From: Escherichia phage BF17
DNA: 64,000 bases
Sequence record: MW822008.1
Reading direction: 5' to 3' (one strand)
Part shown: positions 1-64,000 of the stretch, one piece after another
How the letters are laid out: the number at the start of each line of letters is the position of its first letter
Position numbering within the stretch: position 1 is the first letter of the stretch
Translations under genes and position numbers: made by a program
Notes under the pieces: generated by a model
Told to the model about the DNA's origin: nothing
Database searches by the model: none
What the model saw: only the letters and a program-made list of their open reading frames with translations

Positions 1-276
1 TTGTATATCCAATACGCTACGGTTGATGCTGGAGAATATCTCTACAGTGAAATCTATCGTTCGGTATGGATAAAGTTTTTGGATGAATTACATGAATATT
101 ACCATGATTTGTGCATAGTTCGTGATAATAAAATATACAAATTCCGCGATATTGTTAGTCATAGCGGTAAGCTACGATTGGAATTAAGTACTGATAGTGA
201 TGTTGATTGGATTGGTGTAAATTTACTGGAGTTGGAGAATGAAAAACAACTTAAAGGAAATACAAGTATTTTATAA
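1..276 (+). CDS. hypothetical small protein, possibly 5' truncated by the window edge; small-paralog family
   Basis: ORF track. TTG at position 1 may not be the true start. Size and C-terminal half resemble the neighbouring ~90-aa ORFs. Confidence 0.45.
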   Translation: MYIQYATVDAGEYLYSEIYRSVWIKFLDELHEYYHDLCIVRDNKIYKFRDIVSHSGKLRLELSTDSDVDWIGVNLLELENEKQLKGNTSIL

Positions 277-523
277 ATTCTTATACTTGTCATATGTAAA
301 AGATGAGTACTATGAAAGTGTGTATTATTTTTTATGGCAACATTACCGTACTATAGTAAGAGATTTATATATAGGAAAATCTATCATATCCAATGGTGAA
401 AAATGTATATGTACGGATGTAGTTAGTTTTAATGGTTCTTTAACACTGTGTTTCAGATGCGATAATAATAGTGGGTCATTTTCATTAAACGTATATCAGT
501 TAGAAGGAATAAATTTTGAATAA
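239..523 (+). CDS. small paralog-family protein (Y-I-G-K-x-I core)
   Basis: ORF track. Contains RDLYIGKSIISNG, a motif shared with ORFs at 709, 6308, 7781, 10748 and others. Confidence 0.6.
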   Translation: MKNNLKEIQVFYKFLYLSYVKDEYYESVYYFLWQHYRTIVRDLYIGKSIISNGEKCICTDVVSFNGSLTLCFRCDNNSGSFSLNVYQLEGINFE

Positions 524-716
524 ATGTCCATATTGTAACAGTACTCAATTAGCTCGTTTCCGTTTAGATTCAGACTGGGCGACTGGTGCTGGTGATTTCT
601 TCCCTATTAATGATGATGCGGAATACACCGAAGAACAGCACAAAGATTTTGATAAATCATGGCGACCTGACATTGAGTGCATTTATTGCCTTAATTGTGA
701 GCGTGTTCATGACTAA
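516..716 (+). CDS. small zinc-ribbon protein
   Basis: TTG start overlapping the upstream stop. Two CxxC pairs (CPYC ... CLNC). Confidence 0.55.
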   Translation: MNKCPYCNSTQLARFRLDSDWATGAGDFFPINDDAEYTEEQHKDFDKSWRPDIECIYCLNCERVHD

Positions 717-972
717 AGCTGAACTAATAGTTCATACATATAAAATGATATCAAGTACTGAGTTATCATATAGTGCAGATAATCCAGTACTGGATTATTT
801 TGTTGAATTATTGAAAGAGCATTATATTGGTAAATCACTGATTCTTAATAATATTAATTTCACGGTAAAGGATGTAGCACCTGGAAAAAACGTACTAATA
901 GTATGTGTTACTTCATCTGATAACCCAGTATACCCAATATCAATAATTTTTGAGATATTAGGAGATTTATGA
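709..972 (+). CDS. small paralog-family protein
   Basis: Internal ATG at 709 of track ORF 586..972, overlapping the upstream stop at 714..716. Contains motif EHYIGKSLILNN. Confidence 0.6.
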   Translation: MTKAELIVHTYKMISSTELSYSADNPVLDYFVELLKEHYIGKSLILNNINFTVKDVAPGKNVLIVCVTSSDNPVYPISIIFEILGDL

Positions 973-1259
973 ATATCATTTTAATGCAGAAAACATATGC
1001 TATATTGGTGAAAGATTATTCCATTACTTTCGATTCACAAGAAAGTGCTCTACATAACCTATACAAAAACGTAACACAAGAATACAGAAATATGTTTTCT
1101 GACTTAGTAGTAGGAAGGTATTTCAGTACTAGAAAATACCCAAAACTTCAAATAGTTGATGTTTCTTTTTATTTCAATGGTCATATTACTATTCATAGTT
1201 TAGACCAAGATTCAACAACGTACTTAAACTTTTCATTTGATGAGGTAACATTTTTATGA
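969..1259 (+). CDS. small paralog-family protein
   Basis: ATGA overlap with the upstream stop. Contains SDLVVGRYFS, a variant of the family motif. Confidence 0.6.
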   Translation: MNIILMQKTYAILVKDYSITFDSQESALHNLYKNVTQEYRNMFSDLVVGRYFSTRKYPKLQIVDVSFYFNGHITIHSLDQDSTTYLNFSFDEVTFL

Positions 1260-1432
1260 GAACAGTATTTTTTATCTGGAGTCTTTTTTCATTGGCAGTA
1301 CTGACAGTATGTGGGATTTGTTTCCTTTCATCAATTAATACTTGGTATATCAATTTACTATTTCCATTTGTCGGTGTTGGTTTAGGGTTTACTTTGCATA
1401 GTGTATGTAAGGATTACAATGAGAACAAATGA
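1256..1432 (+). CDS. small membrane protein (58 aa, below the track cutoff)
   Basis: My own translation: MRTVFFIWSLFSLAVLTVCGICF...FPFVGVGLGFTL, giving two hydrophobic segments. ATGA overlap with the upstream stop. Confidence 0.55.
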   Translation: MRTVFFIWSLFSLAVLTVCGICFLSSINTWYINLLFPFVGVGLGFTLHSVCKDYNENK

Positions 1433-1697
1433 AGTACTTATTGCTGAAACAATGAAGATGATTTACAATATCACGTCAGCACAGAATATGCCCTATCCAA
1501 CTAAGTCTTTATTGAGGACTGTGTATCTGGGGATAGTACAGGAGTACTACAAATCCAAGCACCGAAGCATTATTAGTGTTTATCGTGATTATGAAAGGAT
1601 TCGTATTTTATTCTGGAACAAGAATCGAGTACGTTCTGAATGTGACCTAGTGGACTTTAAATTAGAGAATCTTTATTGCTATAAACAGGGACAATAG
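1419..1697 (+). CDS. hypothetical small protein
   Basis: In-frame ATG at 1419 of track ORF 1401..1697, overlapping the stop of the 1256 ORF. Confidence 0.55.
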   Translation: MRTNEVLIAETMKMIYNITSAQNMPYPTKSLLRTVYLGIVQEYYKSKHRSIISVYRDYERIRILFWNKNRVRSECDLVDFKLENLYCYKQGQ

Positions 1698-1715
1698 TTT
1701 AATTCATGATATAAT
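1687..1715 (+). promoter_or_regulatory. promoter: AGGGAC-N17-TATAAT with a TG extension
   Basis: -35-like element at 1687..1692. TGATATAAT at 1707..1715. Gene start at 1756. Confidence 0.55.
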
Positions 1716-1755
1716 AATGGGTAAGGAACAATAATTAACACAAGGAGTGTGTGAA

Positions 1756-61958: not shown

Positions 61959-61959
61959 C

Positions 61960-63075
61960 ATGAAAAAGTATTTGGTTGGCGGTTATACGAGAGATCGTTT
62001 AATGGGCATCCGTGCAAAAGACAAAGATTATGTCATTGTCGGTGCATCCGAATCTGATATTAAGTACTTGCAAAGTATTGGTTATAAGCAAGTAGGTAAG
62101 GATTTTCCTGTGTATCTCAGCCCAGAGGGTAATGAGCACGCATTGGCACGTACTGAACGTAAAACTGGTACTGGTTACGGTGGTTTCGAAGTGAATACTA
62201 AAGGCGTAACACTGGAACAAGATTTGTATCGCCGTGACCTTACAATTAATGCAATTGCGTATGATCCAGTACTCCAGATTCACATCGACCCTTATGGCGG
62301 GAAAGCTGATATCAAGAACAAAGTACTACGACATGTATCAGAACACTTTAAAGAAGATCCATTGCGTGTTCTACGTTTGGCCCGTTTCGCTACACGTTAC
62401 TCAGACTTTACAATCCATGATGATACTATGACAATGTGTAAAGATATGGTTAGTACTGGTGAACTAGACCATCTAGTCCCAGATCGTGTTTTTGTTGAAT
62501 TCGAAAAAGCACTTTCTGAAGAAAACCCTTCCAAGTTTATCAAAACTCTGGTACAATTTGGTTATTACGAAAAGGCATTTACTACAGTTCCAGTTACCAA
62601 GAAACGTCTGGAATTAATTGATGCTATCGCTGCAAATTGTACAGAAGAATATAAACCATATTTCTTATGGACAGTACTTCTTGAAAATGAAGAAGTAAAT
62701 AATGATTCAGTACTTAACGGTTCCATTAAGGTTCCAGTTAAGTACGTGAAGTTTAGTAATTACATCAAGCGTTTCCGTGAAGATATTAAAACCTTCCGTA
62801 AGAAGACCCCAGTTGAAATGGGACAAATCTTACTGGATATGAATATCAAAAACAATGGTGGTGAAGATTTCCTTTACAAAGTACTGGAAAACTTCATTTT
62901 GAACAAAGAAATTGATTCTGATCTTGAAGATTTGATTATTAAAGTTTATGATCGTTATACTGATGTTGAATTACCTGATATTCAGCAGTTAGTGAAAGAT
63001 GGTGAACTCCAAACATCGGAGATTCGTGATTTTGTTGCTGAATTGCGTATTGAAGCAATCAAGCAAATGTTCTAA
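61960..63075 (+). CDS. cca: tRNA nucleotidyltransferase (CCA-adding enzyme)
   Basis: Contains GGYTRDRLMG...DKDYV and RRDLTINA, the class II head-domain motifs. Confidence 0.85.
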   Translation: MKKYLVGGYTRDRLMGIRAKDKDYVIVGASESDIKYLQSIGYKQVGKDFPVYLSPEGNEHALARTERKTGTGYGGFEVNTKGVTLEQDLYRRDLTINAIAYDPVLQIHIDPYGGKADIKNKVLRHVSEHFKEDPLRVLRLARFATRYSDFTIHDDTMTMCKDMVSTGELDHLVPDRVFVEFEKALSEENPSKFIKTLVQFGYYEKAFTTVPVTKKRLELIDAIAANCTEEYKPYFLWTVLLENEEVNNDSVLNGSIKVPVKYVKFSNYIKRFREDIKTFRKKTPVEMGQILLDMNIKNNGGEDFLYKVLENFILNKEIDSDLEDLIIKVYDRYTDVELPDIQQLVKDGELQTSEIRDFVAELRIEAIKQMF

Positions 63076-63079
63076 AAGC

Positions 63080-63108
63080 TGGGACAAGTTAACATCTTCT
63101 GATATAAT
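63080..63108 (+). promoter_or_regulatory. promoter: TGGGAC-N17-TATAAT with a TG extension
   Basis: TGATATAAT at 63100..63108. Nudix ATG at 63151. Confidence 0.6.
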
Positions 63109-63150
63109 TACTAGTATCTGAACATCACTTGATGATAAAGAGATAAGATT

Positions 63151-63595
63151 ATGCGTTATAGCTGTGGTATAATATTTTATCGTGATGGTCAGATACTTAT
63201 CGGGCATACAACACGGACAGAATCACTGGGACTTACCTAAAGGTAAAACTGAAGGTACAGAAACATTTAAAGAGGCTGCTGTACGTGAATGCTACGAAGA
63301 GACAGGATATGAAATCGATGAAGATGATCTTCTGTTTCTTGGTGATGTATCGTATAGAAAGGGGAAACGTTTAGTTTTATTTTTCTATACAGCCAAAGAT
63401 AAGCCTATACCAGAAGAGTTGGTGTGCAAAAGTACTTACACAAACAGATATGGTAGAAGTCACCCAGAATTGGATAAGTTCATGTACATTGATGTACTAG
63501 ATTGTCAAAAGTATTTGACTGAACGAATGTGTAACAGTATAATAAAGGCTGTTACGATGTTTCAACGAAATAAAGGGAAAAGAAATGAAAGTTAA
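63151..63595 (+). pseudogene. Nudix hydrolase with an apparent +1 frame break near 63205..63215
   Basis: Frame 1 from ATG 63151 reads MRYSCGIIFYRDGQILIGHTT..., a typical Nudix N-terminus, and stops at 63238. Frame 2 carries the canonical box GKTEGTETFKEAAVRECYEETGY. Confidence 0.6.
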
Positions 63596-63833
63596 AATTT
63601 ATGGTCGCACTACTGGTTGTAAATTCTGCGACACTGCTAAAGCAGTATGTGAAAATAACAAATTTGATATGGAGTTTATCGATATTGTTACCGCTGGTAT
63701 TGATGGTGCTAAACTATCTGAACTATGTGGTGAGCCAGTACGACAGGTTCCACAAATTTTCGTAAACGATGTTTACGTTCCAGGTGGCTGTACTGGTTTC
63801 GTTGAAGGTCTTAAAGAAGGTCGCTGGAATTAA
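63585..63833 (+). CDS. nrdC: glutaredoxin/thioredoxin-like protein (T4 NrdC-like)
   Basis: Contains MKVKIYGRTTGCKFCDTAK (CxxC) and VPQIFVND...GG. Confidence 0.75.
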   Translation: MKVKIYGRTTGCKFCDTAKAVCENNKFDMEFIDIVTAGIDGAKLSELCGEPVRQVPQIFVNDVYVPGGCTGFVEGLKEGRWN

Positions 63834-64000
63834 TGAATATTGATAAAGTATCATCTCGTGCAAAACATTTAGCTGACACATTGGGTGTTGAATTTAAAAT
63901 GCCTGATATGGAAGCTGTAAAAGTTAAAGCACAACGTAAAATTCACAAAATGAAAGAATACACTACTAAGAAAGAACAGTACGATAACGCGGTTGCTTAT
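63834..64000 (+). CDS. hypothetical protein, 3' truncated by the window edge
   Basis: ATG directly after the upstream TAA. The frame stays open to the end of the window. Confidence 0.5.

Follow-up and report, generated by a model that had tools for sequence, protein, structure and literature searches.

The 64,000-nucleotide stretch of Escherichia phage BF17 DNA analysed here (hereafter the window) carries genes for nucleotide metabolism and RNA repair, nearly all of them on the + strand, with predicted functions that include NrdD/G, dCMP deaminases, thymidine kinase, DNA ligase, polynucleotide kinase, RNA ligase, a CCA-adding enzyme, PhoH, Sir2 and ClpP. Spread over these genes and the DNA between them is a large excess of a 6-bp palindrome, AGTACT, which is the subject of this report. 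By megablast, the window belongs to Asteriusvirus, a genus of jumbo myoviruses of the PBECO4/121Q/phAPEC6 type that infect E. coli and have ~350-kb genomes. Positions 1–56 kb are 98.4–100% identical to phAPEC6 (MK817115), and the window as a whole is a mosaic relative of that phage, identical to no deposited record. Because there was no exact match, we took phAPEC6 as a whole-genome proxy; 349,999 of its 352,598 bp were analysed, and genome-wide statements rest on it. Within window positions 56000–64000, the last 7 kb are 83–88% identical to phAPEC6 and ~95% identical to the EC.P1/fEgEco12 lineage, which marks a mosaic junction at ~56 kb and indicates recombination between Asteriusvirus species.

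We counted 172 copies of AGTACT in the window. An earlier note on this DNA, compiled by eye, had logged roughly 170, and our recount also bore out its numbers for the extended forms of the palindrome (CAGTACTG, 38 copies; TCAGTACTGA, 11; TTCAGTACTGAA, 4), the positions that it quoted (3848, 5534, 8352, 34465, 20903, 22482, 30529, 30547, 51517, 51709 and 51734) and the starts of the four TTCAGTACTGAA 12-mers (Table 1). Base composition predicts 21.5 copies, in line with the crude estimate of 20–25 made at that time. In dinucleotide-preserving shuffles of the window, AGTACT occurred 16.9 ± 3.8 times (maximum 31; n = 100). Shuffling of synonymous codons within each gene, which keeps protein and codon usage and leaves the 15 intergenic sites in place, gave 52.0 ± 5.3 copies (maximum 71; n = 300; z ≈ 23), and permutation of codons gave 37.1 ± 4.9. 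The synonymous null is conservative, since it retains codon usage and proteins that have already been moulded by AGTACT, together with the 15 untouched intergenic copies. The same procedure yielded 4.5 ± 1.4 copies of CAGTACTG. Hence, codon-preserving shuffles, which the earlier note had named as the comparison that matters, fall far short of the observed counts for both words (52 versus 172, and 4.5 versus 38). AGTACT is the sole strongly enriched 6-bp palindrome in the window, the runner-up reaching 2.2-fold, and the two most enriched hexamers of any kind are CAGTAC and GTACTG. Many palindromes that contain GC are missing from the window altogether. In phAPEC6 we found 913 copies in 350 kb, where composition predicts 119 (7.6-fold) and synonymous shuffling gives 366 ± 14.5. 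Relative to the shuffles, the excess varies little along the genome, at 2- to 4-fold; density is 11–23 copies per 10 kb in structural and replication modules and 66–67 per 10 kb among small early genes. The synonymous and codon-permutation shuffles lead us to reject an artefact of composition, codon usage or dipeptide usage.

All three reading frames are occupied in the window, with 73 sites as AGT-ACT, 54 as xxA-GTA-CTx and 27 as xAG-TAC-Txx. Some 90% of sites (157/172) lie inside genes, and the 15 outside open reading frames (ORFs) occur at one per 354 bp, compared with one per 374 bp in coding sequence; occupancy of every frame and of noncoding DNA had both been reported from the letters alone. 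Along gene bodies the word is uniformly distributed, with depletion only at the ribosome-binding region. The excess has left an imprint on proteins. Ser-Thr dipeptides number 737 in phAPEC6, versus 501 expected (1.47-fold), with no rise in Thr-Ser, and 52% of them are written AGT-ACT, versus 15% expected. Similarly, there are 779 Val-Leu dipeptides, versus 570 expected (1.37-fold), and Tyr in the context xAG-TAY-Txx is encoded by TAC in 80% of cases, versus 31% overall. Both dipeptide and codon choice are thus overridden, consistent with the earlier proposal that a DNA-level signal shapes proteins rich in these two dipeptides.

We next consider conservation of the word, using an alignment of window positions 13000–62001 with 121Q (94% identity) and Turkey3 (84% identity). 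AGTACT hexamers were fully conserved in 84.6% of cases in 121Q and 71.2% in Turkey3. For hexamers at large the corresponding values were 73.3% and 47.8%, and for those matched in composition 72% and 47%. Turnover, polarised with an outgroup, was balanced (five gains and four losses in the lineage of the window, 11 of each in 121Q), and many differences and gains require two to four substitutions. Differences in coding sequence comprised 61 nonsynonymous and 55 synonymous cases, the latter including four-nucleotide recodings of Ser-Thr from TCA-ACA to AGT-ACT. In nine core genes, 10 of 20 phAPEC6 sites are found at the same position in RaK2, compared with ~16% expected from nucleotide identity. 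Conservation, balanced turnover and the fact that about half of the differences alter an amino acid together indicate selection on the DNA word. Single sites are weakly protected, while total density is upheld and new sites are gained even at amino-acid cost. Both the excess of AGTACT and the selection acting on it are solid.

These data also bear on the idea that the excess has no function, being a by-product of codon or dipeptide preference, of the avoidance of other palindromes, or of biased mutation or repair. There is a precedent in Vsr/Dcm, where a palindrome (CCWGG) is raised by repair bias, and the genome is indeed heavily sculpted by avoidance of other words (see below). However, the shuffles fall short in both the window and phAPEC6 (366 versus 913 in the latter), intergenic density equals coding density, sites are conserved above hexamers of the same composition, and sites are gained through multiple substitutions and at the expense of protein sequence. 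We regard an absence of function as scarcely credible. A Vsr-like repair drive was rejected specifically, because the excess is too large and no one-mismatch neighbour is depleted (AGTATT/AATACT 1.06-fold and AGTGCT/AGCACT 1.7-fold in phAPEC6, where the word itself is at 7.6-fold).

The form of the site points to recognition of the whole palindrome. As had been noticed by eye, outer one-mismatch variants are far rarer in the window than AGTACT (AGTACA 49, TGTACT 35, GGTACT 21, CGTACT 18, AGTACG 13 and AGTACC 10). In phAPEC6, outer half-site variants reach 1.2- to 2.0-fold, which is no more than inner-position variants do, indicating that the selected unit in the bulk of the genome is the complete palindrome. 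The flanks are dyad-symmetric: in the window, C precedes the core in 80/172 sites and G follows it in 85/172, each a 2.7-fold preference, and the two preferences are statistically independent. Farther outward, sequence is T-rich on the 5´ side and A-rich on the 3´ side, with the symmetry reaching ±4–6 bp; the symmetric outward extension described in the earlier note thus corresponds to mirrored flank preferences around AGTACT. Among the 16 one-mismatch relatives of TTCAGTACTGAA, the mismatch lies in the flanks in 16/16 and in the core in 0/16. The site is thus built like the operator of a dimeric transcription regulator, with dyad symmetry over 12–16 bp, a strict 6-bp core and graded, symmetric flanks. 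Spacing is Poisson-like (coefficient of variation 1.08), with no periodicity and no deficit of long gaps beyond noise; the sole excess, a small one at 18–23 bp, arises from promoter architecture. Over the 350 kb of phAPEC6, half-sites showed no strand polarity outside two stretches beside the terminal repeat, and we found no switch in third-codon-position GC skew of the replication type. In 41.6 kb of Xanthomonas phage XaC1, GGTACT is also raised (56 copies, 6.9-fold), as is AGTACC (29 copies, 3.8-fold), with no GGTACC; the motif of this phage looks relaxed to RGTACY.

To define the distribution of the excess, we sampled 41 kb around the terminase gene of RaK2, GAP32 and XaC1, the left 50 kb of CBB, and 50 kb of E. 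coli K-12. AGTACT was enriched 6.6-fold in RaK2 (Klebsiella), 6.5-fold in GAP32 (Cronobacter), 8.9-fold in XaC1 and 16-fold in Pectobacterium phage CBB, so that enrichment spans 6- to 16-fold across five genera. By contrast, PA5oct and Sinorhizobium phage Phosso, whose terminases are 43–45% identical, are depleted of the word (0.2-fold), T4 has no excess (0.7-fold), and 65 metagenomic relatives from IMG/VR (40–50% terminase identity) contain 300 copies versus 304 expected. We also considered CAGCTG as another hyper-enriched palindrome in these 65 loci, and rejected it because its excess travels with a general richness in CAGC/CAGCAG. The E. coli sample is depleted, with 3 copies versus 11.6 expected. 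Phage DNA thus has one AGTACT per ~0.15–0.4 kb and E. coli about one per 17 kb, a ~45-fold contrast in density. The trait is therefore one of the RaK2-like clade, whose members share at least ~65% terminase identity, rather than of the host; a general coliphage or host-driven effect is rejected, since neither T4 nor E. coli is enriched. The involvement of several host genera argues for a reader encoded by the phage over one encoded by the host. The XaC1 sample is 36% G+C, far from its recorded Xanthomonas host.

To our knowledge, SlmA is the only E. coli protein with a site that contains AGTACT. The phage word could titrate or activate this host protein, which would explain why Sharanji-infected cells filament, no division inhibitor being known for that phage (PMC11895373). 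AGTACT is the central hexamer of the SlmA site, GTGAGTACTCAC, and the hosts concerned are mostly Enterobacterales. The flanks do not fit, however: SlmA requires G1, T2, a purine at position 3, A4 and G5 (PMC3020112), whereas phage sites prefer C at position 3 (2.67-fold), where G is the most depleted base (0.46-fold), and show no excess of G at position 1. The full consensus, GTRAGYRCTYAC, has 0 copies in the 350 kb of phAPEC6. Moreover, T4 infects the same host and has no excess, and the strongest excess in the core region is that of XaC1, whose recorded host is Xanthomonas. SlmA sites are rejected on these grounds, and titration of a host factor, one of the roles that the earlier note had listed, is very improbable.

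Sites are also found within signals for transcription (Table 1). The putative promoter at 20903 is one such case in the window, with AGTACT placed as in the early promoters of the phAPEC6 terminal repeat. There, 28 of the 33 strong promoters of sigma70 type contain AGTACT in one of two places: joined to the -35 element (AAAAAGTACTTGCAA, -39 to -34) or immediately before the -10 element (AGTACTG-TATAAT, -19 to -14). Of the 139 AGTACT sites in the repeat, 35 are promoter-associated. The phAPEC6 promoters themselves, ~33 near-consensus sigma70 promoters, occupy ~324,300–344,368, which homology to fEgEco12 identifies as the terminal repeat. They are of two stereotyped kinds, AAAAAGTACTTGCAA-N16-TATAAT and TTGACA-N10-AGTACTG-TATAAT, all directed inward from the left genome end and preceding small early genes. 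Homologous promoters in CBB are without AGTACT, indicating that the word is not an intrinsic promoter element. A CBB terminator, Torf26, has AGTACT arranged as at window positions 30529/30547. The simplest reading is that copies are inserted wherever sequence tolerates them. The noncoding locus at 51371–52060 is free of ORFs, is higher in G+C than its surroundings and has direct repeats visible by eye (CGTCCAAAATTTGAGAA, twice); ARAGORN found no tRNA in it and there was no Rfam family at gathering thresholds. It may be an RNA or regulatory locus.

Table 1. Positions of AGTACT features in the window, and profile of the word across the left end of fEgEco12.
Sequence	Positions	Feature	Strand	Remarks
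Window	1..64000	AGTACT, 172 copies, ~1 per 372 bp	.	Consensus tTCAGTACTGAa; from counts and shuffles
Window	14850..14861	12-bp perfect palindrome TTCAGTACTGAA	.	Within ORF
Window	30106..30117	12-bp perfect palindrome TTCAGTACTGAA	.	Within ORF
Window	35473..35484	12-bp perfect palindrome TTCAGTACTGAA	.	Within ORF
Window	50878..50889	12-bp perfect palindrome TTCAGTACTGAA	.	
Window	20903..20908	Intergenic AGTACT in spacer of putative sigma70-like promoter (TTGACT ... AGTACTATATTAT), abutting the -10	.	By eye/consensus
Window	30529..30552	Two intergenic AGTACT 18 bp apart that could pair as a hairpin stem, then TTTTT; terminator-like	+	As in CBB terminator Torf26
Window	51517..51739	Three AGTACT (51517, 51709, 51734) in 690-nt noncoding locus	.	
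fEgEco12	1-20,993	Terminal repeat; AGTACT 4-10 per kb		
fEgEco12	~21-26 kb	From repeat end; AGTACT 0; TGTACT 1-3 per kb	TGTACT: coding	~25 tiny paralogous genes in tandem
fEgEco12	26-29 kb	AGTACT normal		
fEgEco12	29-37 kb	AGTACT 0; AGTACA 4-8 per kb	AGTACA: coding only	

The transcribed state of nearly all sites, with genes co-oriented in long blocks, raises the question of whether the signal is read in RNA, as AGUACU in polycistronic mRNA, by a ribonuclease or an RNA-binding protein. The phage has an elaborate set of RNA repair and processing functions, and a stretch in which AGTACA replaces the palindrome (described below) is specific to the coding strand. Against this, recognition in RNA does not require the dyad-symmetric flank preference, sites are found in promoter cores upstream of transcription starts, and in a second unusual stretch the word runs in the opposite direction although the transcribed strand is unchanged. 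We consider an RNA-level signal highly unlikely.

Two conserved AGTACT-free stretches beside the terminal repeat bear on mechanism, although both lie outside the window. Asteriusviruses have direct terminal repeats of ~21 kb, as reported from PhageTerm for Sharanji and from PhageTerm and restriction mapping for fEgEco12. In fEgEco12, AGTACT disappears precisely where the 20,993-bp repeat ends and is absent for the next ~5 kb, over a gene array whose products are ~70 aa long; the TGTACT signal of this stretch stems partly from a conserved motif of the paralogs. Farther inward, 8–16 kb inside the end of the left terminal repeat, is the AGTACA stretch. The corresponding AGTACT-free stretches in phAPEC6 are at 309,064–316,770 and ~320.9–325.2 kb, and Turkey3 is alike (78–83% identity); CBB is without them. 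In the 7.7 kb of phAPEC6 at 309,064–316,770 there are 0 copies of AGTACT and 38 of AGTACA on the coding strand, with 0 in the opposite orientation (45 in the surrounding 9 kb). This represents ~43-fold enrichment on one strand, occurs in all three frames and retains the C(-1)/G(+1) flanks, and the preference for A at position 6 is limited to this stretch. In the speculative self/non-self scheme outlined in the last paragraph, which we consider doubtful, one-strand AGTACA stretches just inside the terminal repeat would lend polarity to a directional step: DNA entry, the start of replication or concatemer processing. The sites of EcoP15I in T7 are also strand-biased, and Type III cleavage needs inversely oriented sites. 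Both cases thus involve an asymmetric word in one orientation; the T7 word is not enriched, whereas AGTACA is enriched ~43-fold and locally takes the place of the palindrome. Chi of E. coli (GCTGGTGG) exceeds expectation in phAPEC6 (12 + 15 copies, compared with ~1 expected per strand) and is clustered in the terminal repeat with an orientation bias (10 versus 2 in fEgEco12, with none in the next 29 kb; 7 versus 2 in the CBB repeat).

The strand-specific stretches suggest a different way in which the word might be read: a half-site, (C)AGTAC(W), could be recognised on one strand by a DNA-tracking enzyme, with the palindrome being the cheapest way to place it on both strands. The signal would then be a phage-private, Chi-like sequence that tames a helicase-nuclease, or a long site for a gp61-like primase (template 5´-CAGTA-3´, primer pppACUG). 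Consistent with a half-site, the 7.7-kb AGTACA stretch is confined to the coding strand and is conserved in Turkey3 and fEgEco12, the second AGTACT-free stretch begins exactly at the terminal-repeat end and has the opposite orientation, CAGTAC/GTACTG are the top enriched hexamers, and genuine E. coli Chi likewise clusters in the terminal repeat. By chance alone, a signal for a primase or nuclease specific for a hexamer would occur only about once per 17 kb per strand, which is too rare, so enrichment would be required. By contrast, there is no half-site polarity elsewhere in the 350 kb, half-site variants (1.2- to 2-fold) do not exceed inner-position variants, the preference for A at position 6 does not extend beyond the AGTACA stretch, CBB lacks both stretches, the signal of the second stretch is partly due to paralogous genes, and there is no constraint on spacing, the long-gap deficit not exceeding noise. 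Against the primase version, the primases of T4 and T7 recognise trinucleotides and have no need of the 3´ CT. Overall, we consider reading of a half-site possible, although unlikely.

AGTACT is a classical Type II restriction site (ScaI), and it could be the target of DNA modification, by the Dam-family adenine methylase PF05869, by another orphan methylase or through local hypermodification, with the modified base being functional. The phage encodes the Dam-family N6-adenine methylase along with other methylases, including a 5-methylcytosine (m5C) methylase of PF00145; left unprotected, ~900 sites of the ScaI type would put the phage at risk, and the word is depleted to 0.2-fold in relatives outside the clade. 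In addition, RaK2 DNA is reported to be resistant to methylation-sensitive enzymes (PMC3622015). However, modification accounts for a tolerated site and not for an eight-fold excess under purifying selection: a Type II target is expected to be neutral or reduced in frequency, yet AGTACT is enriched 6- to 16-fold in five genera. The 286-aa PF00145 m5C methylase was rejected as the reader, since the RaK2 enzyme is reported to make CpG methylation (PMC3622015) and AGTACT contains no CpG. Global hypermodification, a role raised in the earlier note, is unlikely given that fEgEco12 DNA is cut as predicted by ten enzymes (PMC13070987). We judge modification of AGTACT to be improbable.

The abundance of AGTACT contrasts with the usual avoidance of palindromes, which the earlier note had pointed out and which these phages otherwise display: phAPEC6 has 0 copies of 23 other 6-bp palindromes and of GCGC. 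The 23 absent palindromes contain GC; GTGCAC, CACGTG and ACGCGT are not avoided, and RaK2 tolerates GGATCC and GGTACC. GCGC is absent from the window (0 versus ~49 expected), from the 350 kb of phAPEC6 and from the RaK2, GAP32, XaC1 and CBB samples, whereas E. coli has 327 copies per 50 kb (~1 per 150 bp), and PA5oct and Phosso have 42–139. Hexamer avoidance is thus lineage-specific, and loss of GCGC is clade-wide. The most depleted hexamers of phAPEC6 (0.2- to 0.35-fold) include AGTC/GACT and CTAG words (AGTCGA, AGTCTC, AGACTA and CTAGTC), which suggests further avoided words, such as GANTC/GAGTC-type sites.

The symmetry of the site, its strict core, the use of one word over five genera and several hosts, the pattern of 'more is better' and the contrast with host DNA together suggest a phage-encoded reader of dyad symmetry that acts on double-stranded DNA. 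We therefore tentatively favour a dimeric, clade-conserved phage protein or enzyme that marks phage DNA. The earlier note had proposed a binding site for a dimeric protein; the dyad symmetry that this implies is borne out, and it is from this symmetry that we infer the dimer. The binding of double-stranded DNA, the phage origin of the reader and the outcome of binding are likewise inferred. AGTACT, or the extended tTCAGTACTGAa, would be a recognition word kept at the highest density that genes, promoters and terminators tolerate in the RaK2-like jumbo phages (Asteriusvirus, Alcyoneusvirus, Mimasvirus and XaC1). Its occurrence in promoter spacers and terminator stems, and its maximum in the least constrained DNA, the terminal repeat, fit a system in which more sites are better. 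Because the word is dense in phage DNA and rare in E. coli, a reader bound at AGTACT would mark or coat phage DNA selectively over that of the host. This would be a sequence-based label of 'self' in a phage without hypermodified DNA, and could protect, organise or preferentially process the phage genome; in Asteriusviruses, the reader may also occupy the early promoters of the terminal repeat. Candidates are an abundant DNA-binding protein or a dimeric enzyme, conceivably a T4-like topoisomerase II, for which cleavage with a 4-bp stagger would fit A/GTAC/T.

Several observations weigh against this reading. A symmetric dimer leaves the two conserved AGTACT-free stretches beside the terminal repeat unexplained. 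Poisson-like spacing provides none of the regular arrays expected of a structural, condensing protein. The CBB promoters without AGTACT make a promoter-operator role lineage-specific at most, and a Type II-like enzyme that modifies DNA, or the economy of a strand-read signal, would account for the symmetry equally well. Lastly, Pfam scans for the reader covered 105 proteins of the window, 10 conserved hypothetical proteins of the core replication module and a further selection of 10 window proteins, and gave no DNA-binding candidate among the families listed (in one scan the best 25 of 50). These were metabolic and RNA-repair families, the Dps/ferritin-like DUF5856, a WGR domain and an HNH nuclease, with no helix-turn-helix, HU or RE_ScaI-like match. 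The DUF5856 protein (146 aa; window 52522–52962, + strand) has a weak ferritin/Dps-like match and is labelled 'starvation-inducible DNA-binding protein' in relatives; nothing links it to AGTACT.

Known genomic words and their readers resemble this system in part. The SlmA-binding sequence (SBS; GTGAGTACTCAC) of E. coli and the Noc-binding site (NBS; ATTTCCCGGGAAAT) of B. subtilis are likewise short palindromes scattered in coding DNA throughout a replicon, each read by a dimeric DNA-binding protein, and the former has an AGTACT core (PMC3020112). They differ in number, with tens of sites per 4–5 Mb versus ~900 per 350 kb here, and the flanks that SlmA requires are not those preferred in the phage. 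Chi (GCTGGTGG), the DNA uptake sequence (DUS) of Neisseria, the uptake signal sequence (USS) of Haemophilus and the FtsK-orienting polar sequences (KOPS) are, like AGTACT, short words that exceed chance in all frames and are kept by selection; there, a DNA-processing machine reads the word as a mark of 'own' DNA, and density matters more than single positions. Those words, however, are asymmetric and polar and have a cellular reader, whereas AGTACT is a palindromic, restriction-type word of a virus, is 10–50 times denser, and has no half-site polarity except in the two stretches by the terminal repeat. TF1 of SPO1 is an abundant, phage-encoded, dimeric DNA-binding protein that prefers phage DNA and has sites at early promoters in the terminal redundancy; it discriminates by a modified base, hydroxymethyluracil (hmU), rather than by a sequence word, and we found no HU-like gene here among the Pfam families listed. 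Restriction-site avoidance in phages and the CCWGG excess due to Vsr/Dcm concern the same class of words (4–6-bp Type II palindromes), with frequencies shaped by restriction-modification or repair. Avoidance differs in sign from the 8-fold excess of AGTACT, which stands beside 23 other palindromes and GCGC at zero. AGTACT thus resembles selected genomic words and is set apart by its perfect palindromy, its density and its presence in a palindrome-purging virus. A full-text literature search linked AGTACT to none of these phages, in agreement with the earlier statement that no described system explains the excess; it is not described in the papers on phAPEC6, CBB, RaK2, Sharanji and fEgEco12, in a 2026 review of jumbo phages or in surveys of palindrome usage.

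Restriction-type palindromes are words that phages would be expected to lose. The RaK2-like phages, with genomes of 350 kb, as a clade keep one of them, AGTACT, in excess while purging dozens of others, and their proteins pay a measurable price. The word offers an easy diagnostic mark of this clade, and would have to be considered when these candidate therapeutic phages are recoded or engineered. A more speculative extension, which we consider doubtful, combines AGTACT as a 'self' word with GCGC as a 'non-self' word, such that RaK2-like phages would discriminate their own DNA by sequence alone: AGTACT would be read by a binder that protects or organises the DNA, or would serve to tame a nuclease, and GCGC-type sites would be read by a nuclease directed at host DNA, with both readers being phage-encoded. 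If true, this would be a new, purely sequence-encoded system of self/non-self discrimination in viruses. The excess implies a DNA-reading activity important enough to constrain ~900 positions per genome, and its reader would bear on how large unmodified genomes are protected, organised and distinguished from host DNA, on early transcription of the terminal repeat and, possibly, on DNA entry or the orientation of replication.

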